Of a stretch of 64,000 nucleotides of DNA, positions 1 through 58,400 are shown piece by piece. How positions within the stretch are numbered: position 1 is the stretch's first letter; every line of letters starts with the position of its first letter. The stretch lies in assembly GCA_003344405.1 (NCBI GenBank), contig NOWV01000137.1:1-64000 (forward strand), in the 5' to 3' direction. The position numbers and the translations under genes are program-made. The DNA is from Trichoplax sp. H2. Lineage: Eukaryota. Below the pieces are notes generated by a model that saw nothing but the letters and a program-made list of their open reading frames with translations, was not told the DNA's origin and ran no database searches.

Positions 1-162
1 TAACCCTAACCCTAACCCTAACCCTAACCCTAACCCTAACCCTAACCCTAACCCTAACCCTAACCCTAACCCTAACCCTAACCCTAACCCTAACCCTAAC
101 CCTAACCCTAACCCTAACCCTAACCCTAACCCTAACCCTAACCCTAACCCTAACCCTAACCC
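1..162. repeat. Telomeric repeat array (TAACCC)n = (TTAGGG)n on the - strand, about 27 perfect copies
   Basis: Perfect hexamer array from base 1, ending abruptly at ~162. C-rich strand on + as expected for a left chromosome end. Confidence 0.98.
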
Positions 163-1775
163 CATTTAGCACGGATTTCATATCTAATATCCATTACTGA
201 AAAGGTATCTAAAAAATAATTGAGTGTATATCTAGAGAAATTAAGGATTGTATTACTAATTATCCGTTCGATATCGATTCAGGATTTAACCTTTATTAAC
301 ACCATTGATGATACCGATAATTCTAAATTAAGTAACTGTAATTACAATTTTAGCTGTTTAATGCTCCTTAATTAAAAAATGATATTAAAGATTTTATCAT
401 TCATAAAAAATGAGTAGTTTGGATACATCTGTAAATCGAATGCAGAAGGTAGTCTCTACAAATTAGATGTCATTTAACCCTAACCATAAACGGCAATACA
501 AGTAGATACAACAGTGAATTAGATTCTCAATAGGGATTATATTGTTTTCTACGATTATTATTTTATCACTGATCATATTTATTGTGGTATATTTCATAAA
601 GTAAATGTGGATTTTGATCTAAAGTAGTCATATGCTTAATGAAATGAATACAAATCTATACTTGGATTGTTTCTCAATTAAACTTTTGTATTTATGAAAC
701 TGATACAACATACGTATCTTACTATAATATTAAGTAATGAAATGATATCGGTACTGAGCCAATGTTATTGTTTAACATAATTTTCTCTGTTTATGGGTAT
801 GTAATGATATTACATATAGATGTCGATTAAATCCAAGATTGTCTAGTGCTAATATAAATGAACCGGAAAAAAATTGAAATAATCACCACAACATCGGCCA
901 ACGGTTCTACGATGATATGAGGTTCTGCAAATTAGCAGCTAGCTGCTATATCATTAAGTTAGATTATGGCACAGATTTTTTTTGAAGTATTAGTTCCATC
1001 TTGAAAGTTCTTTATGAACATACGAACAAAGTCTGCAGTCTTCAACAGATCTGAAACTAGAATCGCCATCTTGAATAGCTTGCGTAAGTCTTACATTTTT
1101 ATGAGCGCAAAATAGTAAGTACTGATGAAGGTCAAGGACCAATTTTAATTATAGAGATTTGCTTAATCTGTTCTGGCGCCTCATAAATTATCTGTCGATT
1201 CTTATTTATTCAGCAAATTAATACACTGCAGATATACGATGTAAGTAACATTACAAATTTTCTGATGCCCAACACTATCTTAATTCTAAAAACAAAATTT
1301 TATTAGCAACTTTATACGATCTTAGATAATTAGCAAACATAGTTAAAAACAACTTATGAAACGTTTATCATGCTCAGATAGCAATCATCGTATTTATTCC
1401 TGAATGCCCTCAAATTTGTTACTGATCTACTGCTGATATAATCTAAAAGTACGCATAGTTTCTGTTACTTATGCTCAATGAAGCATGAGTCAAGTCGTTT
1501 AGACCCTTAAATATTCAACTAAGTCAAAATTTTAGGATAAAAGACAAGTCGAAAATTAGTTTTATGAAATTACTACCAATTACAGCTAGAATACAGTTAG
1601 CTAAGTGTCAAAGTCCGATTAGGTCTCCTGTCTTTAAAATCTAAATTTCTGATACCTTCTGCAATTATATAAAGTCATAGTAAAAATTATGAAAGATTGT
1701 TACGAAAAACTGCAACTTTGAAAACATTCCATGCGACGCTTTCCGTCCATCAGGATCTCGCTAGATCCAAAAAAT

Positions 1776-4700
1776 TTATTTCTTGTCACCCTTCGCTTTT
1801 AGTTTCTCCATTTCTACATAATAAGGGATCCTCACTGAATAATCAATTTAAGATCATAAAGAAACGGTATTGGACGATTACCTTGCTGAAGCTTTTGATT
1901 CTCTTGCGCTAATTCAGAGTTTCTGGATGACAAATAAATAGCATCTTGTATTGATTCTTCAAGAAGTGATCTATAGGATTGGTCCATGGTGGCTTTTTGC
2001 TGTTCAAAAACGTCCCTGTAGTTTCGGAAGGTCTAACGTACAATTCAGAAGAAACCTTTAATATCATGGGTCTTAATATACGGGTATATTCTATGCAGAG
2101 AGAAGCAGTCCTACTTGAAATTGCTGAAGTTTTTGAATTTCGAATGCTTCCTTATGGCGTTTATAAACATTGTTGATATCGTCCTCCAATCTTGCCTTTT
2201 CCTGTTGCAATTTACTGATCTACAAATTTGTCAACAGTAATTTACGAGTAAGTTAGTTTAAGAATCAATGATAAGACATGTACTATAAAACAATATATAC
2301 CTTTAATGTGAGTATTGATCGTTCAGCCTTCATTTCTATTAGATCATTCTCTAGCTTTAGTATTTGTTGTTGCGAGTACTCGATTCCTTCTGCCATTTTT
2401 AACTACAGTCAGAGTATAAATAGCTATTAGATTTACACGTGATGTTAGTTTTTGCCCAAACATGACAGTTTTACCTGTACTTCAGCTTTTTCCTGCTGAA
2501 TTTCAACTTTCATTCTTTCTAATTCTTCTTCAATTATTGCATCATCTTCCTTTTCTCGCTTTTTTCTTTCCTCTGCCTAGTATTTGTATTGTTTAACTCA
2601 TGTTATAAAGTAAGTAGACAATGAAACTGTTACTGCTGTACCTCTATGACTTGCTGTATTTCTAAATTGCCGCGGGAAGCACTGTATTGCATTTTAGCAT
2701 CCTTAAGTATAAATTATTAGTTTATTAATAACACTAACAGTTGACAGATTATTAAACTATATGGCTACCATTTTTCCTTTTTTCATTTTCTCTTGATTTT
2801 CTCTTAACCTTTTCTTGACATCTTTCAGGATTTCATTTTCGTGCTTCAATTTCTCTTTAACTTCATTAATTGCATTAACATATTGTTTGGTTTCTTCTTC
2901 TGATCGTTTATCTGAGTAGATTCATTAATATGAATTACATTAAATGGATTTAAAACATCAAGCATTTTCATATATAATAGGTTTGGATTAATAAAACAGA
3001 AACTGTACTTGATTCTCCAAGCTTTGAATATTCAGATATTCGATTTTGCAAGTCGTCTTTCATTTCATCGACAACACGCCTCTTTTCTTTGTATTCCAGA
3101 GAGAGCTATGCGTAGATTTATAGCAGATTAGTTAATTCAGTTCAATTTAATATTTCTTATTAGATTTTCTTGACGTATAACAAATAATCTTACTGAGTCC
3201 TTTTCTTGCTGCAAGGTAACCAATTTTTCTTTTACTTCTCGGGTATCTTTCTTGTGGATATCAAAAACCCATTCTATCATACCCTATTGGCGATACAATT
3301 GTTGTAATTTCAACATAAAACTATCATCAACATTGACTTAATCAAAATATTTGATTATTCGAACTGAAAATAACTTAATGTACCATTGCGCTTATGTATA
3401 CGTTACATAGCAGCTACCATCTCTAAATTTAACCACAGTACTCGTATACTAATATCACTTTTAGAGAAATGCTTTGATATCTCTAACCTTTTCAGCAAGA
3501 TTGCGACGTCGTTCTTCTTCGTAAATATCAGAGTAGCGTTCCTTCTCGTACCAGGTTTGTCTCTTTGCAACATTAAGGTCTTTAATCATATCCTGTTTTA
3601 AAATTTTGTTGGCATTGTAGGAAAATTTACTAGGTGCAGATCAAATCAGTCATTATAATCTAAATTGACCTCTAGCCTCTGGATGTCTTCCTTATTTTGC
3701 ACCGCTGCTTCTGGACTAGTTGAAGCAGTGGCTAATTTCTCTCTAAGTCTGTTTATCTCATCCCTAAGCTCTCTAATAACTCGCATATTGTCATCCTAGA
3801 TGCATAAACAAAATTGGAACCCGTTAAAATGCGTTAATGCTATGCATGTCAAGAAAGACAAAGCCAATAAAAAAATCTGAATGTTTTCAACATTTTAAGC
3901 TTATAATATTAATAACCTCTGTTTGCTTAATAGTGTTCTTAATGCTTCGAATAGACTGAGTAAAGTCCAACGTATTTAGCGTTTCCTGATATTTTTCACC
4001 TATAAATTGTTATTGGATTAACACTATGCTACATGATCCTACTTTTTGCTAAGTACCAACTTCGAAGCTATCTACTCGCAGCGAAATGCTATTTCAAGAG
4101 CCTTCTACCTGATGAAGAAACTGTTCCTATGAATACTGTACAGCTGTTACCGCCAAAAGCATCCTAATTGCACATTAGCGAGAAATAAGCAGAATAATAT
4201 AATCATATAACCATTCTTTAAAGAAAAGCATATACAATAGCAAATTGTAACCTGTAGTATTCGAGTGATTTTACTCTCTCTATATGGTATAACTGTTCGT
4301 TTCTTAGAATTTACGAGGTCTTGTACGACTTTATGAAGAGTGTTGACCCTAAATGAATGGTAGAGTTACTTAAGCATTTATATGTTCCCTAAATGAGAAT
4401 GAATATCTAGGGGCTGACAAAATAAATAATGGTTACACTATATATTCTGGCAATTACTAGCTTTTGAATGCCATAGAAGGGATATTCATTTCATGAGCAT
4501 TTGTCGAATACTTACCCTTTATTTGTCAGTTCATATCCTGATCCTTGACTATCCTTCTTCCGTGGTGGAGCTGCATATCATTTTTATTAAGTTATGAATA
4601 ATTGAATTTTTGAAAGCTTGAATAACAGTAACTAATTTTACCCAACCAATCTACATTACCAATAACCTCTAATTAATTTTCAGTTTACCTGTTATGCTGG

Positions 4701-6177
4701 CAATCACAATTTTGCTACGTAACCCGAGATCACCAGCATTTTCTTGTTGCTGTTCAATGGTTATGGTATATACATCGTCAGTTCTGCAATGATCGCATTG
4801 TTAGCCAAGTAGTTTGAAATATACGAGTATGAGCAAAATTCTTAATAAATTTAAAGTAATCAATTAATTTTAATTAACCGTACTTTCTTGCTGCACCACC
4901 ACCTTTCTGGTCTTTCAACAGCTTTTTAACGCGACTACCTTGCTCATATAATTTCGTACAATCTTCGCTTGAGCGTACAACAATTTCAGAAAGACCATCT
5001 ATGTATCTGTGTAAAAGATATTAATGACGCTAATTTTACTTCAAATTCAAAAATAAAACTAAGTGTCGACAAAAAATATTTTAAACGTCTTCCTTACAAG
5101 CCTAACTGCGGATGTTGTCTAATTTTCATTTCGTTTGAATGAGGATTTAGCAAATCTTGCATTTCTTCATCTCTAACCTATTCGATTTCTAACTGTTAGT
5201 TATATAAGTACAATATATAATTTTAAATCGAAATTAGCGTAGAAAGACCTCGAGAAATGAAGCAGTTGTAAGACAGCGTTTTCCAGATGATTGTAATCCT
5301 TTGAAAATGGCCTGTGATAGCTGGAATGAATTATAATTATAACACACTTGAAACATAAATCTGGTGCAAAACATCGATAACAACTATGCATCTATACATT
5401 AATTAATTCAATAAAGTTGCTAAATTTAGATACTAGTAAGAAAGATCTTCCTACCAGAGGTACAATTCCAACTTGGTCTTCATTTCCTGACAAAGTATGG
5501 GTTTTACCAGTACCAGCCTTAGCAAAGTAGTTAACGATATCTTTAGCACGATAGATAGTGTACTACAATTAAGAAATATTTACAAAGTACCTGTCCGTAA
5601 GTAACAATTGTTAAGTTCTTTCCAGATAGTGCTTTTTTAATTAGCGGCTCAACAGCATCATGGTATATGCTATCCTAATATTAATGAAACATTATTAGAC
5701 GTTATTTTTTTATTTCACATCCAAAATAACACCATTGCATAAATGACATCCAGTTTGCATACAGTTTTTGCGTCTGATGAGAAGCTGTAGTCGAAAGCAA
5801 AAGTTTGTTCCTGAAAGACAACAGCAGTAATAAAACGTTTTAGTAATAGTTAGGCAGGCGTTCATCTTTTACTATTTCGCATTAAATCAAAGTACTTAAT
5901 ATTTTCCTAAAGTTTTCATGAAATTTGATGCAATTACTGTTTACATGTACCTTGGTATCATTTCCAGAAGGATTAGGATTATGAATAATAACTTTTTCGT
6001 TGTGCATTTTAATGATTTTGGTTGCTCCTTGACCAGATTCAGAAGCTGTAATATCATTAACAGCATAGGCAAGTTCAGTTAGAGGAATAGAATTACAGAA
6101 AAACAAACAGAACAACATAAACCGATATTAAGCCTACCAGAGAAGGGACGACATCGGATAGAGGTTATTATATTCAT
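1776..6177 (-). CDS. Kinesin-like protein, multi-exon: N-terminal motor domain with degenerate switch motifs, long C-terminal coiled coil
   Basis: Hand-spliced GT-AG exons give MNIITSIRCRPF, EQTFAFDYSF, TIVTYGQ|AGTGKTHTLSG (P-loop), ASFLE|VRDEEMQDLLNP, IRQHPQLGL|YIDGLSE, IPYRESKITRILQ|DAFGGNSCT, YQETLNTLDF and neck DDNMRVIRELRDEINRLREKL. Stop TAA at 1776-1778. The true start may be an ATG|gt exon at 6897-6895 (MEESMNII). Confidence 0.9.
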
Positions 6178-7537
6178 AGATTCTTCCTAACAATGGTTAG
6201 ATCCGCAAATTGCGATAAAAATATTGAAAGATACGAGATTAATTTACTGCGCTAATTATCCTAACTTGCCATTATTTAGTGATTGAAATGAAATCAGTAA
6301 TGCTAAATCATAACACATAGTGATACAGTTGGCTTATAAAAGCATTTAAATTGACTATAAGCATAAACAATTATGAAGAGAATAACCTTGTTTGAATAGA
6401 TTAAACTGTATCTTGTTTTATAAAAGAGGAAGTACACGATATACTATATCTACTCCAATTGAACGAATAGATGAGTGAGTATGAACGTAATAAGTTAAGA
6501 AATTTTTAGCTTGTATAAAATCTCAATTTTAAGGAGCTAGATATTGCTATATCAACGGGGGAAATAAGAAACTGTGTTAAAATGATTTCACAGCGAAGTT
6601 TAGTTGCTTACATGCCGTATACACATGTACATGTCCAGTTAAATTAGTTATCATCGAGCATTCTATATCGAAATCGCATGCTTAGATAACATTTTTACTG
6701 TTAACTTGCTAAAATCGCATGTATAAATTTACTACAACAATCCTCACTAATATAGACCGAAAATCTGTCACTTACGGTACAGAACATAATAACTAGCAGG
6801 AATAACAAACAGAAATATATCACCATTAAGTGTTAACCAATATTATAAATTCTTTGACATTTGAAGCAACATGTAGTAAGGGAATTATTCATACCATGTT
6901 TGTGCCTCTGGTAATTTTCTTCCTGATTTGTGTATTTGTTATTCAAAAGTTCACCTTCGTGTCCCGTAGGCACTAGTTGCTAGTATTGATAGTCGAAGGT
7001 AGCAGTTATAACTACGGGATTAAACAAAATGCTTTACAGTAAATTGTGGTCAAAGCTTTTACAGATCGAAACTTTTCAATAAAATTGTGAATAACAGCGA
7101 CTGGTCTCCAGTAGTAAAGCGATGTAAAGCTTGGACTTACACTTGGAAAGTGCATCTATTTTAAGTGATCTATCTCCAATTAATTAGCTATGGCACAGTA
7201 CACAGGTGGATACCGTTGCGGTATATGGTACCGTACAGTATTTCTCTTGCAGTATAACAGCGATATTAAAAGTGACTGATGATCAACACAGTGCAACTGG
7301 CTATTTCAGGGCCGTTACCAGCGCAACTGCATGATTAAAATAGCTAGCACTATGGTAATTAATAAAGACGGCATTAATGAAGGGAAAACTCCTTTTGCAG
7401 CAATAAGTACAAGAAAATTGCATACTGAAACATTTAGCTCGTTAGCTAGAAATAGCAGTACTGTATTGGTACTGTAGCATGTTATTTGAATTCTGTAAGA
7501 TGCCCCGTCCTTTTCTCGTATGACGCAGAACATGACT

Positions 7538-15400: not shown

Positions 15401-18400
15401 TTACTTTAGTTACGTGTTGCTGACTGGAAATGATGATTTCATCTAAGGATTCACTACCTTATCTAAAATGTCTATTAAGTTATTGTAATTAACATTTAAC
15501 GTCGATCGAAAATTATCCTTGGTTAACTTTCCTAACTTAGCTTATACACGGATAATTAAGTGTTCGTCTATGTTCCGATAAATTACGTTTATCTATCTTA
15601 TCTTAAGTAAAAGTCATGAAGATCTTTTAAGGCGGATAGCCAGCGATAGGTAAGTTGTGGTTTCTGCTGATTCTATGCTGCTTATAATGTAATATAAGTC
15701 AATACATTAAAGGTACACGTTATTAAATGTAGAGAGTCTGGTATAACAAGTGCTACCGATCAGTCACTTTTCGAAACTTTAAGAGAGCCAATCTATTCTG
15801 AAGTAGCTGCATTAATATCTCAAAATGAGGACAGGCCTCACTTTTTGGTAATACTTACAATATAATAGCTTCACTGTACTGTGTTGTCGTGATAATGTAA
15901 TTACGAATGTAAAGAAGTTTTATTGTACGCATTTGCTACAGCATCGTTTATATATTTTCGTTAGATTGAACTATTCCGAGAACTACAACAGTTAACAACG
16001 GATTATTTACGTCAGCGAGCGATATTTTCGTTACAAGACCTTACTAGGCGTTATTTGCGGGAAGATACCATAGCTACAAGAGAGCCACAGCGCAATCAAC
16101 GGGTACGCTTTCTAATTAATTTATACTCCCAAGGGGCTCTTTAAGAGATCGATATCGCTTTCCAGTACTGTTGTAGACATGATGTAGGAATAATCAAGAT
16201 TTATTCTATTATTACTAAGCCTTGGGCGTTATCAAATGCTACTTCCGAGCATACACCAAGTGAAAGTATTGCTACCATTGATGATGAAGAAATGCAGGTA
16301 ACGCATTGGTGTTAGTTTATACTTCTGTAGACGTTTGTGTTGTTTAATTAAAATCTATCTTATTGCTGTAAATATTCACCTATTTCGTAAATGATTGCAT
16401 TAGGCTCAACTAGGAGGGCGCCGTAGCAATCGAAGACATACTCAAGACGACGATATTAGCTGTTTGAGCTACGATTACATGGAAGTGGTTGATTCGGCTA
16501 CATCTATGGCCACTCCACCGTCCAACTCCAGCCCGTACGATTTACCTTTTGCTTCAGACTCTTTAGGAGATACAATTATCCACTTAGATAAGGTGATACG
16601 CGTAATTTACGAGCAGTTTTAATCATTTATTAAGATTGTACACGCTTAGTATGTAATTTCTACTAAGCTAATAATTCATTTATTATGATCCATTTGTTTA
16701 ACTATACAGGCACTTAAAGAAGTTAGAGCCGTTGATGAAAGGGCACGACGTGGTACATTCACGATAGGTAATTCTGCAGTGGGTTTCTTACGTTAATTTA
16801 TACTAGTCATCTACCATCTCGAGACTGCTTAATGGCGAAAATAATTCATGTTCAGAGCGTCTATGAATATTTGGAAATAAACTATCTTTTCAGAAACGGA
16901 AATGGCCAAGGAAGGAGTTGATAAGATTTCGAAAGCAAGTAGTATTGAAAGTCATAAAAGGAAGGGCGATGCAACTTTAAGTAATAATAGCTCCGCTTAT
17001 GATGTTGAAAGTAGTTCATCGTTGAGCGATGTTCCTTACCCTCGCGTTAATACTCAAGAACTGGACCGACGAATACATGTGATTCTAAAGGTATAGATTT
17101 ATTTTGGCTTATTTTAGAACTAAGGAAATTAACCACGAAATTTTGTTACCAGGAACTGGTACCCTACATAAAGGAACACTCGCAGGAATCTTGTTCTTCG
17201 CCTATGTTAAGTGCTATTTGTGCTCGTGTTCTGTCGTTAGCACAGAATCAAACCGAAAATGAGGAGTTTGCAAGATTCTTTCATCGTCAGTTGAACTCAA
17301 CATTGATAGACTCGCTTGGAAAATATATTGGAAGAAGGTGATTGCGCAATTTTAAAGTTGTTATCAAGACTGTCAGTTAAAGATCTAGTGTGTATCGATG
17401 TTTTTATAATTTATTGATGTTATTCTTGTTATATGCTGCCAACTATCAAAGTATGAAGATCGTAGCACAGGAAATTCTAGTCGACATTTCAGAGATTCTA
17501 TTTAATGAGCTAGCATTCTTTGAACTTATGCAAGATGTCGATAGGTAACGATTCTAAACCAAAGTAGCTAAGCTTTCACAATGGTATATCTGTAATAGTT
17601 ATAATGTGAATATTTATGCTAGCCACGAAAAATCAAGCCAAGAAATACCATCCTATTTACCCAGCGGTAGTGGTAATCAACAATATACAAGTGAAGGTAG
17701 CAAGATTTGCTGTGCTATGATGCAGTAATTTTAGACAAATTCCATCAGTTTGTCCTTGTCGTTTTTAAGTCTTTTTGGTGTCCATAATATTATCGTACTT
17801 TTATATTTCTCACGCAGACGGGAATGATAATTCAGAAATTGACTCTGAAACTGAAGCGGAAAGCGCTGAAGATAAGCCAGTTGATTCCGTTCATGAACGA
17901 GAGGTAAAAACCGCAGTTGATATGCTATCGAAAGATAAGAGTGATCAATCTATGGACGTTGAAATGGAAGAATTAGGCAAAGTATGTACGATTAGATTCA
18001 TTCTATGAAAGACATTGTTACATGCAGAGTTTGTATCATTACCATTTTATCAAGCCTAACCTGAAACTGTAGCATTAATTTGATTCGTCTTCAAATAACT
18101 TCATTTTTAACGGTAGGATCGCGACGATGCTATGGCAAATCAGTTTGAAGAGCGGTCAATTGAGCTGATGCAGGAAACGGAATTTATTGATTGTACTGGC
18201 GATTCTGCGTAAGTATTTTCTATTGCTTTTAGTAGTCGGCTCAGGATTATTGCATTTGGCTTGTTAGCAATGATTAATTTCTGGCGTTACAGTCAAACGG
18301 AAGATTTTAATAAAATTAGTACTGGAAATAACTTGGATGGCAAACAACACTCGACGGAAGGCAACTCCACTATTAGCAATGAAACTATTACCGACGACAA

Positions 18401-28633: not shown

Positions 28634-29755
28634 TTAATAGTCAGCTTGCATTAAATGGGTTACCTCCCGGTCTGCTATATCATCTACTTTTTTACATCCG
28701 AGTTCGGAAAAACTTTTACGGCACCTATCAGCATTGACGATATGAATTTGAGAGTAGATCAATTTAATAAGATCATTTTTACGCTCTGGCTTATCGAGGG
28801 TTGACACTTCATGATCTTTCAATTTCTTAGTAAGGCTGGCATCAATGCATTGCAGAACATGGGTCATGTCCAACGGGAGGAAAGGGACGAAAGAGCTGAC
28901 TAAACAATGCTTAACAAATTCGGACGAAGCGAAACCCGTACGCGATGTAGAATCGTCGGCCGATGTACCACGGTAACTGATTTTTCTAATGATATCATAA
29001 AAATTTTCTGAATCGAAATCGTCAACCTCGGTTTTTACTGTAAACTGTCTGCAAGCTTCTTCGTTGATTTCTCGAGAGGCATAATTACTGGTGAATATAA
29101 ATATGGTATTTGCAAAGCTGACATTATCCACGCTACTTTCGTCGAAATACGGAGATAAAGCATCGATGACTCCAGCTTCCAGTTTATCCACTTCTTCGAA
29201 TAGTACTAGTGGCCTAGTACGCGATTGCACAAATCTCTTGATTTCTGTCTTGAGTTTGTGTTTCTTACCGTCCATATTAAGATTAGTTAGGAAATCTTTC
29301 AGATGAATACGACGAACATATGAGCTACTTAGACCATTTTTATATAATACTTTAGCAAGTAACTTGGCAACCAAAGTTTTGCCAGTACCAGCGCCACCAT
29401 GAAAAGAGAGAACTAAAGCTTTTTTCGACGTTTTCTTTGAAATTCTCACTAAATGGCTAGTTAGCATATTCCTGATGATTTTCAAAGCAAGATCTTGTCC
29501 GAAAACATGCTGCTTCCATTCCTTAGTCAACTTTGCCTTGAAAATGTTGGGATCGTGGATAGCCCACTCGGCATTATCGCATTCCTTGAATTGGCAATAT
29601 ACATATTCTCCAACTTTGTAAGTAAAAGGAATCGCAACACTCCCTCCAACTAACGCAGCTGTAAAAAATTCGCTGTTAACTTGAACGAAGTAATTAGCTG
29701 CTAGTAATAGAAGACCAAGGTTGCAAGAGAAAATGAGTGATCGAGAAAGGTGCAT
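28634..29755 (-). CDS. Torsin-family AAA+ ATPase, single exon
   Basis: 373-aa ORF with signal peptide and hydrophobic segment, YCQFKEC, HVFGQDLA, KALVLSFHGGAGTGKT, LFEEVDKL, TIFIFTSN, FVPFLPL...HV.QCI and the C-terminal GCK motif. Confidence 0.93.
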   Translation of the reverse strand: MHLSRSLIFSCNLGLLLLAANYFVQVNSEFFTAALVGGSVAIPFTYKVGEYVYCQFKECDNAEWAIHDPNIFKAKLTKEWKQHVFGQDLALKIIRNMLTSHLVRISKKTSKKALVLSFHGGAGTGKTLVAKLLAKVLYKNGLSSSYVRRIHLKDFLTNLNMDGKKHKLKTEIKRFVQSRTRPLVLFEEVDKLEAGVIDALSPYFDESSVDNVSFANTIFIFTSNYASREINEEACRQFTVKTEVDDFDSENFYDIIRKISYRGTSADDSTSRTGFASSEFVKHCLVSSFVPFLPLDMTHVLQCIDASLTKKLKDHEVSTLDKPERKNDLIKLIYSQIHIVNADRCRKSFSELGCKKVDDIADREVTHLMQADY

Positions 29756-30063
29756 TCTACTTTCCTTGTTTGCATTCGCTATTGATGCTGTATCTGCGTA
29801 TTTTAAGCATTAGGATAAATAAATTATATAATTATTGGTAGCCTTGACCACTAATAGCGTATTCGCTTTTGAGCAAGTATTACAAACTGGTTATTATACC
29901 GTACTAATATTAACTTGTAATCTGCCTTAAGCCGTCAACAAATGCCGGGAAAACTATTACCTTAACAGCTCATTATGAACATCCATGACCAGTAGACGTT
30001 TGTATACAGTAAACTGTCAGTAGTTGCCAAGATTGGCGCCACTTACTACCCTATCTAAACTTA

Positions 30064-37916: not shown

Positions 37917-40900
37917 ATGGCTATTTTACGTCTTTTATTCATATTTTCCATATGTACTCTTGTGGTAAAAGCCCAGATGATGTCAGATGAATCTGACGTT
38001 TATTCGATGTCCAATTTTGAATTTATCACCTCAGGTTATGATGATGGATCTCAGCAACTATCAACTGCAATTCAAATGTTATCGATACAGTCAATAAGTT
38101 CTGCATCTGTTACTACATTTGTTTATACCAATAACCTGCGTAGCTCTCAACAATTCGCTCCATCATCGATAAGCGTGCCACCTAGTGATGTCGGTTCTTT
38201 GACAAGCAGTGTATCTACTTATGATTTGACTGCCAGTCAATCGGTCGTTCCTACTTCAACTACTGGCAGCAATACTAGTGCTACAGCTGGTACTTCAGTT
38301 AGTGCCCCATTTAGTGCTTCCATTAGTGCTTCAGTCGGCCCTTCAGCTAGTGTTACACGTAGTGCTAGTGCTAGCGCAGGTTCAAGTACTATTGCTAATC
38401 CTACTGCTAGTTCTAGTATTAGTGCTAGCCCTACTGCTAGTTCTAGTATTAGTGTTAGCCCTACTGCTAGTTCAAGAACTATTGCTAATCCTACTGCTAG
38501 TTCTAGTATTAGTGCTAGCCCTACTGCTAGTCGAGCGATTGATTACACGCCAACAAGTAGTTTCGACGACTCGGGTGAAAGTGATGCTGAAACAATTATC
38601 ATCATTAATCCAACAACGGCTACCAGTTCCAAGTCTGCAAGTCCCTCTGCGGCAACAAGCGTAGCTGTATCAGCTTCAGCTTCTAAATCATCGACGGCAG
38701 CAAGCTCAATGGTAGCTCAGCCAAGCAGTACATCTACTCCATTTTCTAGCTCAGTGGCTCCTACACCAACACCAACAACTCTTGCTCCAACGCCACCATC
38801 AGCATCACCATCAACTCCAACTCCAACTCCCACCCCAGGTAAGCATATTTTGGTAGGTTTTAGTAATACATTAAGTTACGGCAAAATATGATCAACGTCA
38901 TGTATAATTATTATTATTTTCAGACGTAAATCATACAATATACAGTTTCATTCCCTCCTATCTTTAGACAATATAGTTACTGTATTGCTCATGTATAATT
39001 TATTAGTTAAAGACACATGAAATTCGTAATTATTGCTGTATTAAAACAGAGATAATTTATAATGCGGTAATTTCGGTACGGTACCATAATCTTCTAAATT
39101 TAATCAGCTTAGTTAACGGGATCCCATCACTTTTTATCCACCATAATGGACGCACTAATTTCTCATAAATAATATTAAAGTCATTACTGGCTTCCCCGTA
39201 GTAATGAATAAGTTTAACTTATTTAAAATTCGACGCATCAGTTTACCGCTCGTATAAATAGTATTTTGATTAATTATTATGGAATTTGATGAATTTTCTT
39301 TTAATGAAAATTAAAGATGCGACCACTTGCCGCTAGGGAAAGTTACTAATTTAAAGATTTTACATGTACCCTCCTAAGAATATTACAACTGATATTGAAT
39401 TTATCTTATTTAGACTCTGGTTCATTGCGCCCATTCAGTACCAAAAATATGGTGCCGCTAGGTTATGCTTGTCAGCCGATGACAGTTCCTCAGACAGTTG
39501 GTCTACCATTCTATGGCAACCTCTATTATACCGCATACGTAAGTATCCAAAACGATCTGAGCATGCATGAAACAACGAAACTGGCTAAAATCTTTTACCA
39601 TTATAGAGTTAATGATAGTCCTATAAAATCCATGACAAAATACTGTAACGTATATACTCCAGCAGTCGCTTTACTTTTTCCGAAATACGAATACCGTTAT
39701 ACAGTATAAACGTGTTGCAGTCTTTATCTTACTAGTCTCCACCAATGAATAATTATCTACATGACATCTATCGCCGTCGGGTAATTAACTCTGACTTTCA
39801 TATCCATATGTTATAGTTATTAAGGCCAAGTGAAGATTTTTAGTAATAACCTCTTCGAATTGCTTTGTTTCTAACAGCTTTCATGAATTATTCATGCTTT
39901 CGTAGTTCATAGTATCTATCTACAAATATACGTGAATGCATATCCTAGACAATTGCATGATCTATTTTTAAGAAGTGTTTAAGAATATTATGACTAATTT
40001 CTTATTATTTTATTTATCTCAACAATATTTACAATATCTTTAATAACAAATTTCGTTTTATGTAAAATAAATAAAATCATATTCTTCCTTCCGTTTCATT
40101 TTGCACTTTAGATTTGTGGAAATGGCATGATTACCTTTAGTACAAATAGTTGGATCAATTACAGATTTCCTAAACCATTTGGAAGTCCTGGATCGCTAAG
40201 ATCTTTATCCGTTGCCGCCCCATTTTGGTCGTTAGTTTCCTTACAACAGCCAGTTAATTCTGGTACTTTCTACGAGCCGCTATCTGATAGCTTACTCGCA
40301 ACATATAGTAACGATGTTCGAACGGCTCTTAATATTCAACAATTCGCCGCAACTTGGGGCTTCCAAGTTACTTGGTATAGATTGATTGCAAATGAAACCG
40401 CTTTAACTTCTCCGGTGAGTACTGCATACTGTATAATATTAAATTGTAGCAATGTTTGCATGATATTTTTGTCATTCTCGGAAGAATTTTTCTCACGAGA
40501 CATCATTCTTGAAAGTATTGACAGGATCGCATAAATTTATAGTTACTAGACTTGATCTATGTATATAAATTACAGTGTCAATGACTGAAATATTTTGGCA
40601 TATAAATATTAGTATGCTATGAATTGATTAATCGTATTTTAATATACCATACCTGTGCTGTTCAGACCAATACCTTCCAATGTCAATTAATAACGGATGG
40701 TACCAACAGTTATGTGCTCTATCGCTATCCTAAGAACAGCCTGCAATGGTCATTGCCACAGGAAAATACCTATTTAAATAGCTTAGGTATTGGATCTCCT
40801 GTCGCTGGATATAACAATGGTCCCAGCTTTTTCAATATTAGGCAGTCAGCTACCGGCGGCATCAATACAGTTGTGACTGGTATTGGCAACACTGGAAAGC

Positions 40901-43900
40901 GCGGATTTTGGATATACAGGTAATTATACTATTTGCAATCCATCTAGTGGTTAATATGTACGATTTCCGATTCTCTCACACTTTACAATTCGTTACAAAA
41001 CGTTTAGCCTATCAAGTAATGTAGAAAGACCTCCAGAAGGATCATGCAGAAATTTCCTCACGCAACCTGCTCCAACTTCATTGCAAGCCATTTCCAGATG
41101 CCCATGCTCACTTGGTCAAGCCATTTTGGATCGTCGATTTATATTTGATAGTGCTAATTCTGCTACTCAGTTGTGTTACTATTCACGCTATATTGTCAAC
41201 AACTTTGTTCAGAAATGTTGCTATCAGAACTTCTCTCCTGGTTTTGGATCATATCTTAGTGGAATCTCTAGCCCTGGTGCTGGCTATATCGTAGGTTATA
41301 CTAATAATGCATATGACAATACTGGATATGGTTTCTGTTGCCATCCAGCAACACCACAATCTTTATGTGTAACCTTCTACAATAATTATCCAAGTCGAGA
41401 ATGTCAGATTTCACCACGCTTAAGTAAGTTACGTTAGTTATTATACTGAGGATGGAAATATTTGTATCAGACTTCATATTATGCATCTTAAATTGGAGAT
41501 TGATTCTAATTTTATTTTATAATATTTCCATTTACGATTAGCTTGGAGTTTTGGAGACCCTCATTTCACTACGTTGGATGGTGTTCGGTACACATTTAAT
41601 GGCCTTGGCGATTTTGTTCTATTGCAAAATAGAACAGCAGTTGTACCCGCCCTTGAAGTTCAGGCACGATGCGTAAAAGTAGCCCCAAATGCTGGTGCAA
41701 CAGCATTCCGAGCCGTTGGTGCATCTGAAGGCAATAGCGGAAGCATAGAATTTAACGTTAATACTGCAACAAATACTATCGATATTTTATACAACAAGCA
41801 GACTGTTGTTATTGGCAGTTCGGGCTCAACGACTTACCAAAGTGGCTTAATTGTTAACAAACTCAATACTACTTACGCTATCGCCCAATTTCCATCAGGT
41901 TAGGCTAAAATTAAAATAATTAAGACTGCAACTGATTAAATTTTAAATTGTTGTTGTTTTTGGATATTAAAAACTGGATTTTTTCCTCATATGAATACTT
42001 AAGGTACCGTTGTCATCGCTAAAGTCCGAAATGATTCCTTTATGGATATAAGCATGCAATTATCTGTTAATTACTTCGATCAAACGCAAGGCTTGCTAGG
42101 TCGATGGGACAACAATGCGAATAACGATTTCACTGATCAAAGAACTGGAGTGAGCTTCCTAATCTCTGCTGTTTCAGAATCACAAATTCACAACATAGCA
42201 GAAACATGTAAGATCAAGAATCATAATTTTTAGTATAAATACGCAAATAATACTACGACTGTCTGTCGTTAGCTTATTATTATACTAATTTTTCTATCTA
42301 TTTACTGAAGTTATATGCTAAATGATTGTCGTCCGCGTATGCTAATATCTTATGAGTAACATAAACAGAGTTTGCATGAAAAAATCGTACATCATGAAAT
42401 GATCGTTGTTGAAATAAAGCAACCAGGCTCTGTAATAAAGTGACTAAAACGTTCTATTTTTAATTTTAAATTAAAGGGGCCGTGGATCCGCTGAAACGAC
42501 TAATAGCAAATGATCCACCTTCGAACTCATCTTATGTACCGATCTTTCCCGCAAATATCACATTCAGCTCACAACAGTTGGAAAATGATGCTGCATCAGT
42601 ATGTCAAGGAAATCAAGCTTGTTTATACGACGTTGCGTTAACTGATTCATTAAGTATTGGTTCAGCATCTGCAGCAGTGGATCAACAAAATACTGTCGAT
42701 AAGCAATCCTTAGGTAAGTTGTTGAACGTAAGTTATAATTAAAAAGTTATATGGGATCGTTGATTTAGCGAACTAATAAATCATGGAAAGTTAACCGATG
42801 TCATATCGCTAACCAAAAATCTACTGGTAATAAATGTGGAAATATTCAATGTAATCGAACCAATTATTTCTCTAAAGATCACAGACCTCCGCAGATTGTT
42901 ACACCGAAATCAACAATCAATGCTACTATTGGGGAAAAAATTGTTTTTCAAGTATCCGCTGATAGCGCCCAACAGTATACAATGACTTATACTATTAGCG
43001 GCAAATTACCTGCAGATTATTCTTTTCCTAATGGCAGCGCCGATGGTACTTTTGTATGGAATGTTACTTCAGCTGATCCTATTTCGATCACTTTTGTTGC
43101 AACTGATTCACAAGGTAGATCAAGTGCAATCACACCCAAGATTAGCATTTGCAACTGTTCGAGTAATGGCCAATGTATGTGGAATGCTGCCATTGGCTCT
43201 ACATTTGCATTGGTCCCGTGCACTTGCAACGCTGGATATACTGGTTTACAATGTGAAAGTGATATCAATGCTTGCGCATTAAATGGAGAAGCATGCTTCC
43301 CAGGAGTTACCTGTACTGATCAACCAGCTCCAGCGGGTATCGATGGTTTTACATGCGGATCATGCCCTAGTGGTACAGCCGGTGATGGAAAAGTCTGCTC
43401 AGGTATGTTTTTCTTTTATGTTATTACTAATAAATTAAAATAGATATCTAATAAGATTTGAAATAATCGATTTAGATATACAGGAGTGCAGCGGATCTAC
43501 ACATGGTTGCAATCAAGTCTGTGTTGAAATTTTTGGTTCCTATAGATGTCAGTGCAATCCTGGGTACCGATTATCAAATGACTCAAAAACATGCACTGGT
43601 GAGTCGAATTCTATAAGAAATAGAATAAAATAAGAAAGAAAGTAAATTGAGTAATAGATTTTTTGGATTTCAGATATTAATGAATGTTTGGAACAAAATG
43701 CTTGTAGTCAGCGGTGTGTCAACACAGCTGGAAGTTATACCTGCGGTTGCAGATCTGGATTTACTCTACTACAAGATGGCCGAACTTGTGCCAGTAAGTT
43801 ATCGCAATACTAGTACTCTACTGAAAAAGTTTACATTTCTGGTCAAAACAATGCCTTTACTCTTGTGTTTATCGTTTTATAGGCTATCGATATATAATTG

Positions 43901-53400: not shown

Positions 53401-55484
53401 TATTTTACTAGGTAAATCCAGTTATTGAATATCATTTAGCACTGGAAAAAACAATTTAGGATTACTCTAAATGGTGAACCTTACTTAAACTATGATGAAT
53501 TAACACCTATTTATTAACCTACCTTTCGTTTTAAAGTGGTCTATCACCCTAATACAATATCGGCTTATAGATAATATAAAACGCTATAAGCATGCCTGGA
53601 TGCAATAAAAGGCAATGAATAAGGCATTGTTATTTGCGAATCACTCACTATATAGCTAGAGTAAGATATATTGCCAATGGGTCAAGTGCCCGCTACCTAC
53701 GCTAATTAATTATATATGAATAAGAAACCTTTCCCAATTTACTATTTATTCATGAAGGTAGACAGCTTATCCCAATTATCGAGTTTATTACAAATAAAGT
53801 AGAAACTGGATAGCAGAATCAAGTAACGATTGAAAAGTAATTTACCTACGGAAATCCAGTATTCAAATTATTCTAGGCTACTCTTAAGTCATGACATTAG
53901 ACAAGGTATGAACAAAATTTGTATTATTTGTCTGCTATCATTAACAGTGTACTATGGACGGATCGGAAATTTGGATAGCAGTAGAGAATTTAATTAGACA
54001 TATTGTGATATTTTATATAGAACATTTGATTTCCTATCGTTAAATTACAAATCCTCCTTTTTTCAAGTCTAGGCGTTAGGCATGATCATCGGAAGGGCGA
54101 TGCCTTCTCCATTATTCAAATAAATGATTTATGTTGGCTTGATCACGTTACTTCGCTTGTCTTTCATATATATATATCATAATCCTATTGATAAAAATAG
54201 CTTGATTTTTATTCCATTTTCGTATTAGAAAAAGTTGTTTTTCTTATGGTAATGAATAAGAAATTGCTGTTATTAAAGGACAAAAGTCATATCAACAATT
54301 AAGGTGGGACCGAATTGGTAATAACATGAGACAAAGCAAAGACCGAAATTTTCTGCAGTATCATAGTTTGATCATAGGGAAATGATTACAATCGCCTGTT
54401 ATAGAGATTTAAAAACGATTTGCCTTGAAAATAATGGAATTCTTTTCTAGACTAATTGGCCATAGAAATGACTTAAACTGGTTTTTTCACCTTATTGGCG
54501 TAGCTAAACCTACGTAGTGTATAAGATAATATAGCAGTCGTGCATCAGAGAAGAAAATTTGAGCATACGTATTCTCTTATTCATCGAGGACATCCAATTC
54601 ATTGTTCACTCATTCTATCTAAATTGGATCCATCTATAAATTAATTATTATTGACAATTAGCCTCTCGGTAGCTAAATCCTATATAAACAAATAGCCGTA
54701 ATAACGGACGAAACAAACTCATTTGGTTCTAGAAAATAGCACGTAGCTTGACTCCATCATTCTCCAAGAGTATTTATACTCCTAGCCAATGGGTACCAAT
54801 TTAAATCTATCGAGCAAGATGAACTATTGATATAGTCTAAAGAGAAGAAATTATCTTTTGACTCAATAGGTAGAATACTGAAGGCCGATCAAATTATGTT
54901 TTTTAATTGAAATTCAATTCCCTCTAGGAATTCTAAATAGGAACATTGAGCCGAGTGTCCAGTAAATTTTTAGTAAAGTATCCTATTTAGTCATTGATTA
55001 TTTCATCAGGAATGTCCATTGAAAAAGTAATGTTATGTTCTACCTAAGATCCGGTAATGCTTTAAAATACGAATTGAATTATTTAGCTTTGGATTATAGC
55101 GATTGTCTCCGTCAAGAAATTTTTTTTCAGCGTTGCAATAAAATTTCCATTTTCAATACAATTCTTTCTCGTTATTGTTTGCTACATAATAATCCTTCAT
55201 TCAATTTTTTTGTATCATTAACAGTATGAAATAGTTGGGTTGGGTCTGTATACCCTAAGTAGTTATTTTTCTAATTTAGGTGATCCTTGAAATACTGGAT
55301 TAGGAGCACTCTTGCTGATTCTATCCGGCATTTGGTCTATGTTAGGGTAGTGGTGTCTGTTAAGGAGTTATTGGAAGATTATCGATAAGAAAGATATCCG
55401 AAAATTGACATCATATTTGGTTAAGAGTTCTTTCACTCTTTGAAAAGTTTTCTTTATAAAAAATTATCCTACTTTCTATCCACC

Positions 55485-58400
55485 ATGACTCGATTAATAC
55501 TTTTAATATTTCTTATATGCTGCTATCAAGTACCAACAATATCTGGACAAGAATCGCTATCGTTAGCCATGCTTAGTATAATAGACGAAACTTATGTTAC
55601 CGAATCGATTGTACTCTCAACAGATAATTTTCTGTTTTCTATGGATATGCGGACATATACGTCTTCTATTTCCATGTCTATGCAGACATCAACATCCACA
55701 CTTTCCTCGAGCATTGTCGCAACCCCAAGTACTGCCAGTTCAACCGCTCGACAACCAACTCCTACGCCGGTGATAGGTAAAAATTATAGGATCCTTGTTT
55801 TTTCTTGGATATATTATGATTACGTCAATTTAAAGTCAATATGGGGAATGTCTAATTCAAATGAATAAAATACGATCTATAAAATGGTAGAATGTCATGA
55901 GTTGAGAAACAATTTAGTTTGCTAAGTAACGGTTAGGATGAACGAGTCCAGAAATAGGGAAGGCTAATATTCTCTCCGACTTGAAATAATTTAGAGTATG
56001 ACAGTCGTTTGTGTAGTGACATGCGATGCTAATTTTCTCTTCACTGCGAGATTAAAATTTGTACGCAAAACTGAAAAGGAATTGGTTTTAACTTAGATAA
56101 CGATAACGAATAATATGTACTGTAATGGTTAAATTAAGACTGAAAATGCTACTGGTAATTATTATCATAATAGTATTCTAGTGTTAAGATGCGTAAAACC
56201 GACAAAACAGTTACGGTAACGAGTTGATAAACGATGAATTTTCCGAAATAGCTGCCTAAAAATATGCTAAATATTCTAAGAATTAGGTCAAGACTGATAT
56301 TTTCAAACTTGAATATAGTCAGAGACAGCTGCCATTGCTAGAAAATCCTTTATTTCATCTAAAGTATACAATAATTAAAATATTTAAGGCATGGATGTAA
56401 ATATAAGAATTATTCTAATAACGGTAAATAACGATTAGGATAAATATGCAATCTAATGGTTAAAATCAGATTTCTATCGATTGTAGATCCTGTCGCCATG
56501 ACAGGAGATTTCGAATATAATCTGGCCAAATAGTCAAAAATGATAGTTAGCGCGTCGATATAAGTGCTAATTAAACTTATGCCAACTATAAATAGCCATC
56601 AGAATAACTAGCACAGAATAGCTAGATTAAGATTCCGATTTTCAAGCATGGAATCGTAAATCGTAACAAACTTTACTATGATTGCTGATACATTTTTAGT
56701 ATCCTTTTTTAACGTTGGATCAAATAGGTTACGGTTAACACGTATTTAGCATTTATTATACCCTTGGAATTGAATCAATGTCAGAAGCTGTATATATAAT
56801 GAAGTATTTTATTGCATAGCCAATAGTAAAACAAATTCTAACTAGCGTTAGCATTGCAAAATAATTTTAATTAAATCTGGCTTCTTTGGCTTTAATAACG
56901 AGTAGATAGTGGAAATATACGCCCTTTTTCACGAAATAATGGCGTTCCAGACGGGCAATCTTGCCCGAGTATCGATATACCGCAAACGATTGGATTACCT
57001 TTCTATGGAAAATTATTTTATAAAGCTTACGTAAGTATTAATTTGATGTTAGTCTTAGCCAGTATCTACGATAACATCTAGCTGTTATAGGCCAGACGAT
57101 ATAAAAATGCTGTCAATTCAATATTACCAAACGATATAAAGTAAGGAAAGTAGATTGAATTTAGCGAATCTCGAACGTCATTTTTTAATATCATAGCTTC
57201 GAAAGTTTATGCATTTATTCATTTGATGCTAATTTTTGGCTGGTTTCTGTCATAATATCACGCTGATAGTTACTAATATTAATACAGTACTTATCTGATG
57301 ATATACGAGAAAAGGTTTGTAAGTACCACACTATCAAATGATATACTGAACATAAGAAAACAGTAAAGAATCTTTAAAACTCTTCTCCTATGCTATAACG
57401 AGCTAAACTATATCAAAAAGACTACGAAGATATTGATTTAATTGCTAGTCTGGCTCAGCCCTCTTCGCAACAATATCAGTTATTCGACGATAGATGATTT
57501 AAAATGTTTTAATGTAAGAGTTAATTACTGATAGAAAGACAAGATATCTTGAAAACTATTTTTCTATATCAAAACTTCTTAGAACTATATTATCTGCCAT
57601 GCAAAAGCCTTGATTTATGATTCGTTCAGTGGGTTTCTATTAGTATAGCTTAATCGTTAATTTTCAAATGATACATTCGTGAAAAGATATAATCTCAAAT
57701 TGATTAAACTGCAGCATGTAAGGACCTAAGAAAACGGCTGACATTCTTGAAAATTAATTTTGCGCACCTCACTCGACTGAGCTATATTGCAAAGTTTATA
57801 GACGCCCTGACTTAATGTTAGTGTTGGCGAGTTTCTATTATAGTATTATAGATACTACTGATCAAACACTAATGGTTATAATTTCAACACAATCAAAAGA
57901 TGTAAGGCCACAAGATAAATTTAAAGGGTTTTAAAAATTTTTCATGTCTATCTTGACCACATTGCAATGTACGAGATGTAAAAAGTCTTGATTTAATGTT
58001 AGCGTTGGCAAGTCACTATTGCCATCTCGTAGTTGCTACTTATAATTATTAGATACTATAAAATGTTATAATTTCATGATCGAACGATATAAGGACGCAG
58101 CGTCAAGAATCTTTCAAAAAATATCTTTTCATACCATAGATAGCTATTACAACAGCTAATGATTGGTACCTATTTATAGTAAGGTATTTAATAATAACCC
58201 TTTTCAACGACAAAGAAATCCTTGTAGGCTACTTAAATTGTCCTAGTAATTAGCATTGATATCAACAGCGTGGCTTAATTGATTTATTTATGATAATCTC
58301 CTTGAAAAAATAATACTGTCAATAGAATCGTAAATTTATGGCCTTTACTTTGATATTTCCTAAATTAGATCTGTGGCAATGGTATGGTCACATTTAATCG

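Follow-up and report, generated by a model that had tools for sequence, protein, structure and literature searches.

To our knowledge, only a few kinesins with a catalytically dead head are known, among them KIF26/VAB-8 and Vik1/Cik1. Vik1 and Cik1 are fungal accessory chains which carry the head at the C-terminus, have no P-loop and form obligate heterodimers with the kinesin-14 Kar3. Here we describe a kinesin-like gene of the placozoan Trichoplax sp. H2, located on the minus strand near the beginning of a stretch of 64,000 nucleotides (GenBank assembly GCA_003344405.1, contig NOWV01000137.1, positions 1 to 64,000; the window in what follows) and corresponding to TRIADDRAFT_62201 of Trichoplax adhaerens. 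The encoded protein keeps the P-loop of the motor head and has lost key residues of both switch regions, and its relatives point to an old family of kinesin-like proteins in which this loss appears to have proceeded stepwise.

Three described systems come close to this locus and are set apart from it on different grounds. The kinesin-11 proteins (KIF26A, KIF26B and VAB-8 of Caenorhabditis elegans) appear to belong to a different lineage, as no protein of the KIF26 type occurs among the closest matches listed and the present family groups with kinesin-3. Furthermore, the family described here keeps catalytically intact members in sponges and protists, has a length of about 700 residues and carries a tail motif of its own. 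The kinesin-3 proteins (KIF13B, KIF1A, KLP-6) resemble it more closely, since KIF13B is the best solved relative, the predicted fold of an Acropora orthologue matches the KIF13B structure 6a20, and both groups share a clade. They differ in their domains, the family protein being without FHA, KIF1B, DUF3694, PH and CAP-Gly domains. With Vik1/Cik1, the Trichoplax protein would share a kinesin-fold head that does not hydrolyse ATP and perhaps binds microtubules, as described for the fungal proteins (PMC4338441, PMC3384419); in contrast to these, the P-loop is kept here, the head is N-terminal, and the family appears to be ancient and widespread.

The gene itself has been catalogued before. In the kinesin census of Wickstead, Gull and Richards (2010), supplementary file 5 lists it as Triad_62201 with the family 'ND' and excludes it as 'divergent', and the same file places the orthologues of Lottia and Capitella under Kinesin-2 without a subfamily (PMC2867816). 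In these entries the census recognises neither the family nor its degenerate motifs nor its distribution, and the Kinesin-2 placement is rejected by our analysis (approximately unbiased (AU) test, p = 0.0012). The census also contains a Kinesin-17 group of 21 rows, among them Chlamydomonas 175469, T. brucei Tb927.3.2040 and Monosiga 25905, none of which is an animal row and for none of which functional data are given there (PMC2867816); the intact protist members of the present family might correspond to this group. In the open-access literature, we found no paper on the family, its degenerate motifs or TRIADDRAFT_62201.

Motor motifs and gene model of the Trichoplax protein

The following elements of the gene, all on the minus strand, are referred to throughout (aa, amino acid residues).

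1776..6897, minus strand: kinesin-like gene, whole coding span, 25 exons, ATG at 6897-6895, stop codon at 1778-1776
6145..6156, minus strand: RCRP, the N4 RxRP nucleotide-binding motif, aa 12-15, kept
5500..5596 (5596-5591 + 5517-5500), minus strand: P-loop GQAGTGKT, aa 92-99, intact, split by an intron
4777..4906 (4906-4884 + 4783-4777), minus strand: switch I equivalent KGGGAARKTD, aa 199-208, in place of NxxSSRSH
4563..4698 (4698-4689 + 4570-4563), minus strand: switch II equivalent SITAPP, aa 235-240, in place of DLAGSE
4527..4562, minus strand: equivalent of loop L11, 12 residues long (16-17 where the catalytic motifs of the family are intact)
4149..4308 (4308-4252 + 4163-4149), minus strand: L12/alpha5 microtubule-binding segment SKKR..IPYRESKITRILQDAFGG, aa 270-293, kept in all clades
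3488..3795, minus strand: neck coil with CC1-like helices (aa 335-411), which contains DDNMRVIRELRDEINRLREKL and QTWYEKERYS
1812..2144, minus strand: C-terminal tail motif, aa 635-695, conserved more strongly among animals than any other part of the protein

The public protein model of the gene (P0001, 647 residues) matches the Pfam Kinesin profile (PF00225) with 132.6 bits against a cut-off of 29.3, single exons match positions 57-83, 85-104 and 261-289 of this profile in collinear order, and the best solved relative found with HMMER is the kinesin-3 KIF13B (7e-33). Motif positions were set by HMMER alignment to KIF13B and by two family alignments. These alignments confirm what a sequence-only reading of the locus had proposed, namely a pseudo-kinesin with an intact P-loop in which both switches are replaced, with one correction: in switch I the Asn and both Ser of NxxSSRSH are indeed gone, and its Arg is kept. 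In switch II, SITAPP stands in the position of DLAGSE, as had been supposed; the signature DxxGxE is absent, with the Asp, Gly and Glu of DLAGSE all replaced, a state which only Trichoplax shows among 69 family rows. The L12/alpha5 motif IPYRESKITRILQDAFGG is likewise real, and it lies at 4290-4252 and 4163-4149, outside the stretch 4516-5674 (minus strand; exons 5-11 of 25) to which it had been assigned; the exon that carries this segment matches Pfam Kinesin on its own at 27.4 bits.

The positions of kinesin-1 Asn198, Ser201, Ser202, Asp231, Gly234 and Glu236 are occupied in Trichoplax by Gly, Ala, Ala, Ser, Ala and Pro, respectively. A review of ATP turnover by kinesin-1 gives the roles of several of these residues: both Ser201 and Ser202 are in contact with Mg2+ as well as with the gamma-phosphate, to which Gly234 also binds, and Asn198 touches the bridging oxygen. 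A latch between Arg203 and Glu236 places the two catalytic waters, and mutating this latch powerfully inhibits hydrolysis (PMC4924600). What this review describes bears out the earlier view that the residues lost here are essential for ATP hydrolysis (PMC4924600).

The corrected gene model comprises 706 residues in an open frame of 2121 nt, with GT-AG at every junction of its 25 exons; its identity with TRIADDRAFT_62201 is seen in exon 9, the translation of which is 100% identical. The public model omits four exons supported by RNA (6186-6138, 5810-5763, 5320-5249 and 5177-5098), among which is the exon bearing RxRP, and it includes a false exon near 5391-5347. Its C-terminus is also wrong, as it ends in a different last exon, whereas RNA connects 1882 to 1813. 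Furthermore, RNA contigs supplied an exon of 60 nt (2701-2642) and the 5' exon with the ATG at 6897-6895.

Transcription of the gene is apparent from public sequencing runs: of the words sampled from the locus, a share of about 0.30 occurs in many runs, as would be expected of fully spliced mRNA. The evidence for splicing consists of assembled contigs from four sampled runs, and at least 15 splice joints, with 9 further ones beyond those listed, were found in contigs of X6 (labelled RNA) and X5, which come from two different studies. The other two runs, X7 and X12, contributed no contigs, which may be an effect of filtering. The three exons that encode the unusual switch regions (4884-5006, 4689-4783 and 4516-4570), predicted from the sequence, have GT-AG borders, and their joints, 5006 to 5098, 4783 to 4884 and 4570 to 4689, are seen directly in RNA contigs; the joint of 4516 to 4348 is not among the RNA-contig joints listed. 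A frame of 2121 nt confirmed by RNA over 25 exons with GT-AG borders is not a product of chance. All six listed differences between contigs and window (1638, 1746, 3649, 3659, 4578 and 4627) fall into introns or the 3' untranslated region and none into the 2121 coding bases, which gives a weak hint against decay of the gene.

The window is eukaryotic in character, with a G+C content of 29-37%. It opens with 27 perfect copies of TAACCC at 1-162, that is, TTAGGG on the minus strand, and because of this TTAGGG-type array its start is taken to be a chromosome end. The stop codon of the kinesin-like gene, which has many short introns, lies about 1.6 kb from the array. The JGI name scaffold_38000001 is consistent with the first gene on a scaffold.

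A family of about 700 residues and its place among kinesins

A HMMER search of 1.84 billion representatives returned 23,497 kinesins at E <= 0.001. The closest matches are proteins of about 700 residues which are collinear with the Trichoplax protein over head, neck, stalk and tail and share 28-52% identity with it (query residues 99-630); in 30 animal rows, identity to cnidarian, bilaterian and sponge orthologues amounts to 37-48% over about 700 residues. A profile search of the named collection yielded orthologues from 9 animal phyla. They occur in echinoderms (crinoids, brittle stars, sea urchins, starfish and one sea cucumber), acorn worms (hemichordates), amphioxus, gastropods, bivalves, annelids, nemerteans and one brachiopod, in corals and one octocoral, in three sponges, and in the unicellular opisthokont Nk52, and remoter members with about 30% identity are found in stramenopiles and one dinoflagellate. 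The best 120 matches contain no vertebrate or insect member of the family, and the sole nematode row is an ordinary kinesin-3. Most of the named species have one family member each. The names assigned automatically by NCBI to the orthologues conflict with one another (KIF3B, unc-104, FLA10, klp-20, KIF4, KIF13A), and the family therefore lies outside any curated model. According to these sequence comparisons, the Trichoplax gene is the placozoan member of an old, unnamed family of kinesin-like proteins of about 700 residues.

The state of the catalytic motifs was compared in an alignment of 69 family rows that included the corrected Trichoplax model. GQTGSGKT, MNxxSSR-SH and DLAGSE, together with an L11 of 16-17 residues, are found in each of the three sponges, in Nk52 and in a consensus drawn from 19 protists. 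In three cnidarians, switch I reads kNsggxr-sd, switch II reads DMAGSD/E and L11 has 14-15 residues; the switch I of Trichoplax is of this cnidarian kind, the odd cnidarian motif being near-identical to it. In 12 deuterostomes and 30 spiralians, switch I is replaced by a rather uniform loop, xxAHRAR-AH, with several positions at a consensus of at least 80%, and in these bilaterian rows DLAGSE or DLAGxE is mostly kept, L11 is cut to 1-9 residues and the Gln of the P-loop is often changed. RxRP and the PYRxSKxTRxLQ face are kept in every clade of the alignment, and conservation across all clades extends to the P-loop and to the Arg of switch I. As further observations on the P-loop, spiralians read GATGSGKS with the Gln changed, and the consensus is also lost in three relatives, P0029, P0041 and P0048.

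The rows with a replaced switch I (Trichoplax, cnidarians and bilaterians; n = 14) form one clade with support of 100/100 (ultrafast bootstrap (UFBoot) and SH-like approximate likelihood ratio test (SH-aLRT)), and the same clade is still recovered at 99 when the columns of the P-loop, switch I and switch II-L11 are removed, and the trait needs a single change. Sponges join this degenerate clade next (100/99), followed by Nk52 (100/99). The alignments and trees thus indicate that switch I was lost once and early, before placozoans, cnidarians and bilaterians diverged, and that the loss of motifs was stepwise. What the sequence-only reading had described as a feature of the Trichoplax protein is thus part of a motif loss that is family-wide and ancient and not specific to Trichoplax, a point which that reading had missed. 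The end branch of Trichoplax is the longest of the animal rows (0.88-0.92 against 0.09-0.61), and its head therefore evolves fastest.

For the placement among kinesins, a tree was computed with IQ-TREE from 61 rows and 500 columns, two very long rows being left out, and kinesin-3 rows were labelled by their FHA, Kinesin_assoc, PH or CAP-Gly domains. The family and 13 kinesin-3 proteins share a clade (96/97, and 95 in a second tree limited to the first 420 residues), within which the 13 kinesin-3 rows are monophyletic at 100/100 with the family outside. As the single sister group of kinesin-3 the family receives 86 in the second tree, and in the tree of 61 rows it is paraphyletic to kinesin-3 (75/56). 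The public Trichoplax model has no match to the FHA domain at E <= 0.1, whereas kinesin-3 controls show one. With structures of kinesin-2 and of kinesin-3, the intact members reach similar scores; a sponge member, for example, has 345 bits with OSM-3, 342 with KIF1A, 324 with KIF3B and 322 with KIF13B, and a second comparison gave a like result. These results suggest that the family is related to kinesin-3 and stands outside the kinesin-3 clade.

Membership in kinesin-2 was considered and rejected, as a tree in which the 34 family rows are made to group with 8 kinesin-2-like rows is worse by 38.2 log-likelihood units (p-AU 0.0012), a constraint in which 2 of the 8 rows bear a kinesin-2 name and the other 6 were chosen after the tree was seen.

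Constraint along the protein and competing explanations

Within the animals, the parts of the protein are conserved to very different degrees. Compared with cnidarians, deuterostomes and spiralians, respectively, the tail motif of Trichoplax, taken over aa 635-694, is 67, 70 and 63% identical, the neck and CC1 region 53, 49 and 50%, and the segment from switch I to switch II 26, 25 and 21%. When sponge is set against protist, the switch I-II segment shows 59% identity, the C-terminal third of the head 69% and the tail motif 24%. These values suggest that constraint has shifted from head to tail in animals, and in the Trichoplax protein it is neck, stalk and tail that are most strongly conserved. 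The tail exon itself gave only noise against Pfam and PDB at E <= 10 (DUF6262 at 0.032, LytH at 1.4).

The neck and the QTWYEKE segment had been likened to kinesin-3, and both the tree and the fold match of an orthologue to the motor, neck and CC1 of KIF13B agree with this. Exon 15 alone reaches 21.3 bits with Kinesin_assoc, below the cut-off of 29.5, and the whole of P0001 gives no match. The fold was predicted, from an alignment of 52 family rows, for P0178, an Acropora orthologue whose switch I resembles that of Trichoplax and which serves as a stand-in for the Trichoplax head. The model has a mean predicted local distance difference test score (pLDDT) of 83.3, and values under 50 are confined, within the head, to residues 202-205 in the switch I loop and 244-257 in L11. 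Four long helices follow the neck; the last of them (589-708) includes the tail motif, with a pLDDT near 90. The top Foldseek match of the model is the auto-inhibited motor-neck-CC1 fragment of KIF13B (6a20; 421 columns, E 2.4e-40), and further matches comprise other kinesin-3, kinesin-2 and other motors.

The explanation which we favour, with a probability of roughly 60%, is that the Trichoplax protein is a catalysis-dead, nucleotide-binding and static scaffold attached to microtubules, derived from an ancient family with a motor head. The members of this family have an N-terminal kinesin head, a kinesin-3-like neck and a long helical stalk with a conserved tail, and in sponges, Nk52 and protists the head carries every catalytic motif. 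Replacement of the switch I serines would date to the ancestor shared by placozoans, cnidarians and bilaterians, and afterwards L11 would have been shortened in bilaterians and switch II lost in Trichoplax. The head may still bind nucleotide and microtubules, without closure of the switches on ATP and without hydrolysis, and since a head of this kind would bind ATP and be unable to hydrolyse it, we infer a static scaffold and not a motor. Such a scaffold would probably be dimeric through the helical stalk, and its conserved tail may recruit a conserved partner.

A number of points speak against this explanation. ATP binding, microtubule binding and the lack of hydrolysis are all deduced from residues. 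Since the switch I Arg, the P-loop and RxRP are conserved, selection still acts on the nucleotide pocket, and ATP might be turned over slowly or in an unusual way, especially in bilaterians, in which DLAGSE is kept. As alpha4 and L11, the main microtubule sensor, have diverged, binding to microtubules may be weakened. A crude heptad test for a coiled coil was only weakly positive (0.04-0.05 of the windows tested, against 0.01 +/- 0.02 after shuffling), the long branch of Trichoplax fits a relaxed constraint on the head, and splicing evidence drawn from contigs alone leaves room for rare isoforms.

The retained L12/alpha5 microtubule face, together with a long helical stalk that could pair with another chain, would also suit a non-catalytic subunit of a heterodimer which tunes the microtubule attachment of an active kinesin, as Vik1/Cik1 do for Kar3. 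Non-catalytic heads that aid an active partner are documented in the literature on these proteins (PMC4338441, PMC3384419), and supplementary file 5 of the 2010 census lists canonical kinesin-2 and kinesin-3 genes of Trichoplax (Wickstead et al., 2010; PMC2867816), which could be partners. We nevertheless regard such a subunit as unlikely, given that most named species have one family member with no co-evolving paralogue seen, that the analysis turned up no partner, and that in sponges and protists the family protein is a complete motor by itself. The analogy to Vik1/Cik1, which had been drawn from the sequence, finds no support here either, the head being N-terminal and the P-loop, unlike that of the fungal chains, being kept. 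Rather improbable, in our view, is an ATPase motor that is still active with an unconventional site, in which other residues would stand in for the lost Ser, Asp, Gly and Glu and turnover would be slow or differently gated. It would explain why the P-loop, RxRP and switch I Arg are conserved in all clades and why the new conserved switch I loop and the kept DLAGSE of bilaterians look like selection on the pocket and not like drift. The Trichoplax protein itself fits it poorly, as DxxG has been lost, with Ser in place of Asp, Ala of Gly and Pro of Glu, as Ala stands at both serine positions of switch I, and as no part of the protein is less conserved among animals than the switch region; in kinesin-1, moreover, mutation of the latch powerfully inhibits hydrolysis, as the ATPase review states (PMC4924600).

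The remaining explanations concern the gene and its model. A decaying subtelomeric copy, that is, a transcribed relic on its way to a pseudogene, might be suspected from the distance of 1.6 kb to the telomere array, from the longest branch among the animals and from the loss of switch II in Trichoplax alone. It is very improbable, as the frame of 2121 nt is open over 25 exons with intact splice sites, spliced mRNA is found in two studies, the tail motif is 63-70% identical to that of cnidarians and bilaterians, and none of the six listed RNA differences is coding. Because identity is deeply retained, the 25-exon frame is open and the mRNA is spliced, a decaying gene can essentially be excluded, and the earlier judgement that the gene is maintained, and not in decay, stands: it is expressed, correctly spliced and 37-48% identical to its orthologues over about 700 residues. 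An artefact of the exon model, with a true transcript using exons that carry canonical switch motifs, is barely credible, and for the major transcript it has already been refuted. Several errors in the public model, and RNA joints beyond the at least 15 listed, leave it some room; RNA, on the other hand, joins 5098 to 5006, 4884 to 4783 and 4689 to 4570 directly, and the cnidarian orthologues carry a near-identical odd switch I. Neither SSRSH nor DLAGSE occurs in any open stretch of the three minus-strand frames of 1-6400, and exons restoring these motifs, which had been named as the finding that would overturn the pseudo-kinesin, are absent from these frames and from the listed RNA joints.

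Neighbouring genes and significance of the family

Several other genes of the window were noted. An exon on the plus strand matches PCM1_C, the C-terminus of pericentriolar material 1 (E 2e-16), and places a centriolar-satellite gene (PCM1) at a distance of about 10 kb from the gene described above. A single frame, apparently intronless amid an intron-rich region, encodes an AAA protein of the Torsin type (Pfam Torsin, E 1e-21). Two tandem paralogous genes contain NIDO, VWD and He_PIG/EGF-like exons, and a mucin-like open reading frame rich in Ser, Thr and Pro lies ahead of each.

17051-17341, plus strand: PCM1_C exon
28634-29809, minus strand: Torsin-type AAA protein, single frame of 391 residues
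37911-38891: mucin-like open reading frame ahead of the first NIDO/VWD paralogue
40112-43443, plus strand: first NIDO/VWD paralogue
55425-55868: mucin-like open reading frame ahead of the second NIDO/VWD paralogue
58369-63173, plus strand: second NIDO/VWD paralogue

For the animals other than sponges, the comparisons allow a wider and tentative proposal, which we consider possible and hold with less confidence than the scaffold explanation for Trichoplax. These animals may possess a conserved 'switch-only' kinesin, a motor related to kinesin-3 that, over half a billion years ago, would have become a microtubule adaptor which binds nucleotide and does not hydrolyse it. The pocket of this adaptor, made up of the P-loop, RxRP, the switch I Arg and, in bilaterians, the new AHRAR-AH loop, might serve as a sensor or latch and not as an engine, and the invariant tail, which would bind a partner, would be its business end. 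The protein would have stayed unstudied owing to a presumed loss in vertebrates, insects and nematodes, and Trichoplax could provide a natural null for residual catalysis.

With regard to existing records, the analysis corrects the public gene model, in which four exons are restored, one false exon is removed and the C-terminus is changed, and it resolves the census entry 'divergent, not determined'. What a fold does beyond catalysis often comes to light in relatives of enzymes that are catalytically dead. The strongly conserved tail points to a partner in most phyla of marine invertebrates. Within one family, a living series appears to lead from complete motors in sponges and protists, through the loss of the switch I serines in cnidarians and bilaterians, to the additional loss of switch II in Trichoplax, and this series lets one ask which role remains for a kinesin head that would no longer burn ATP.

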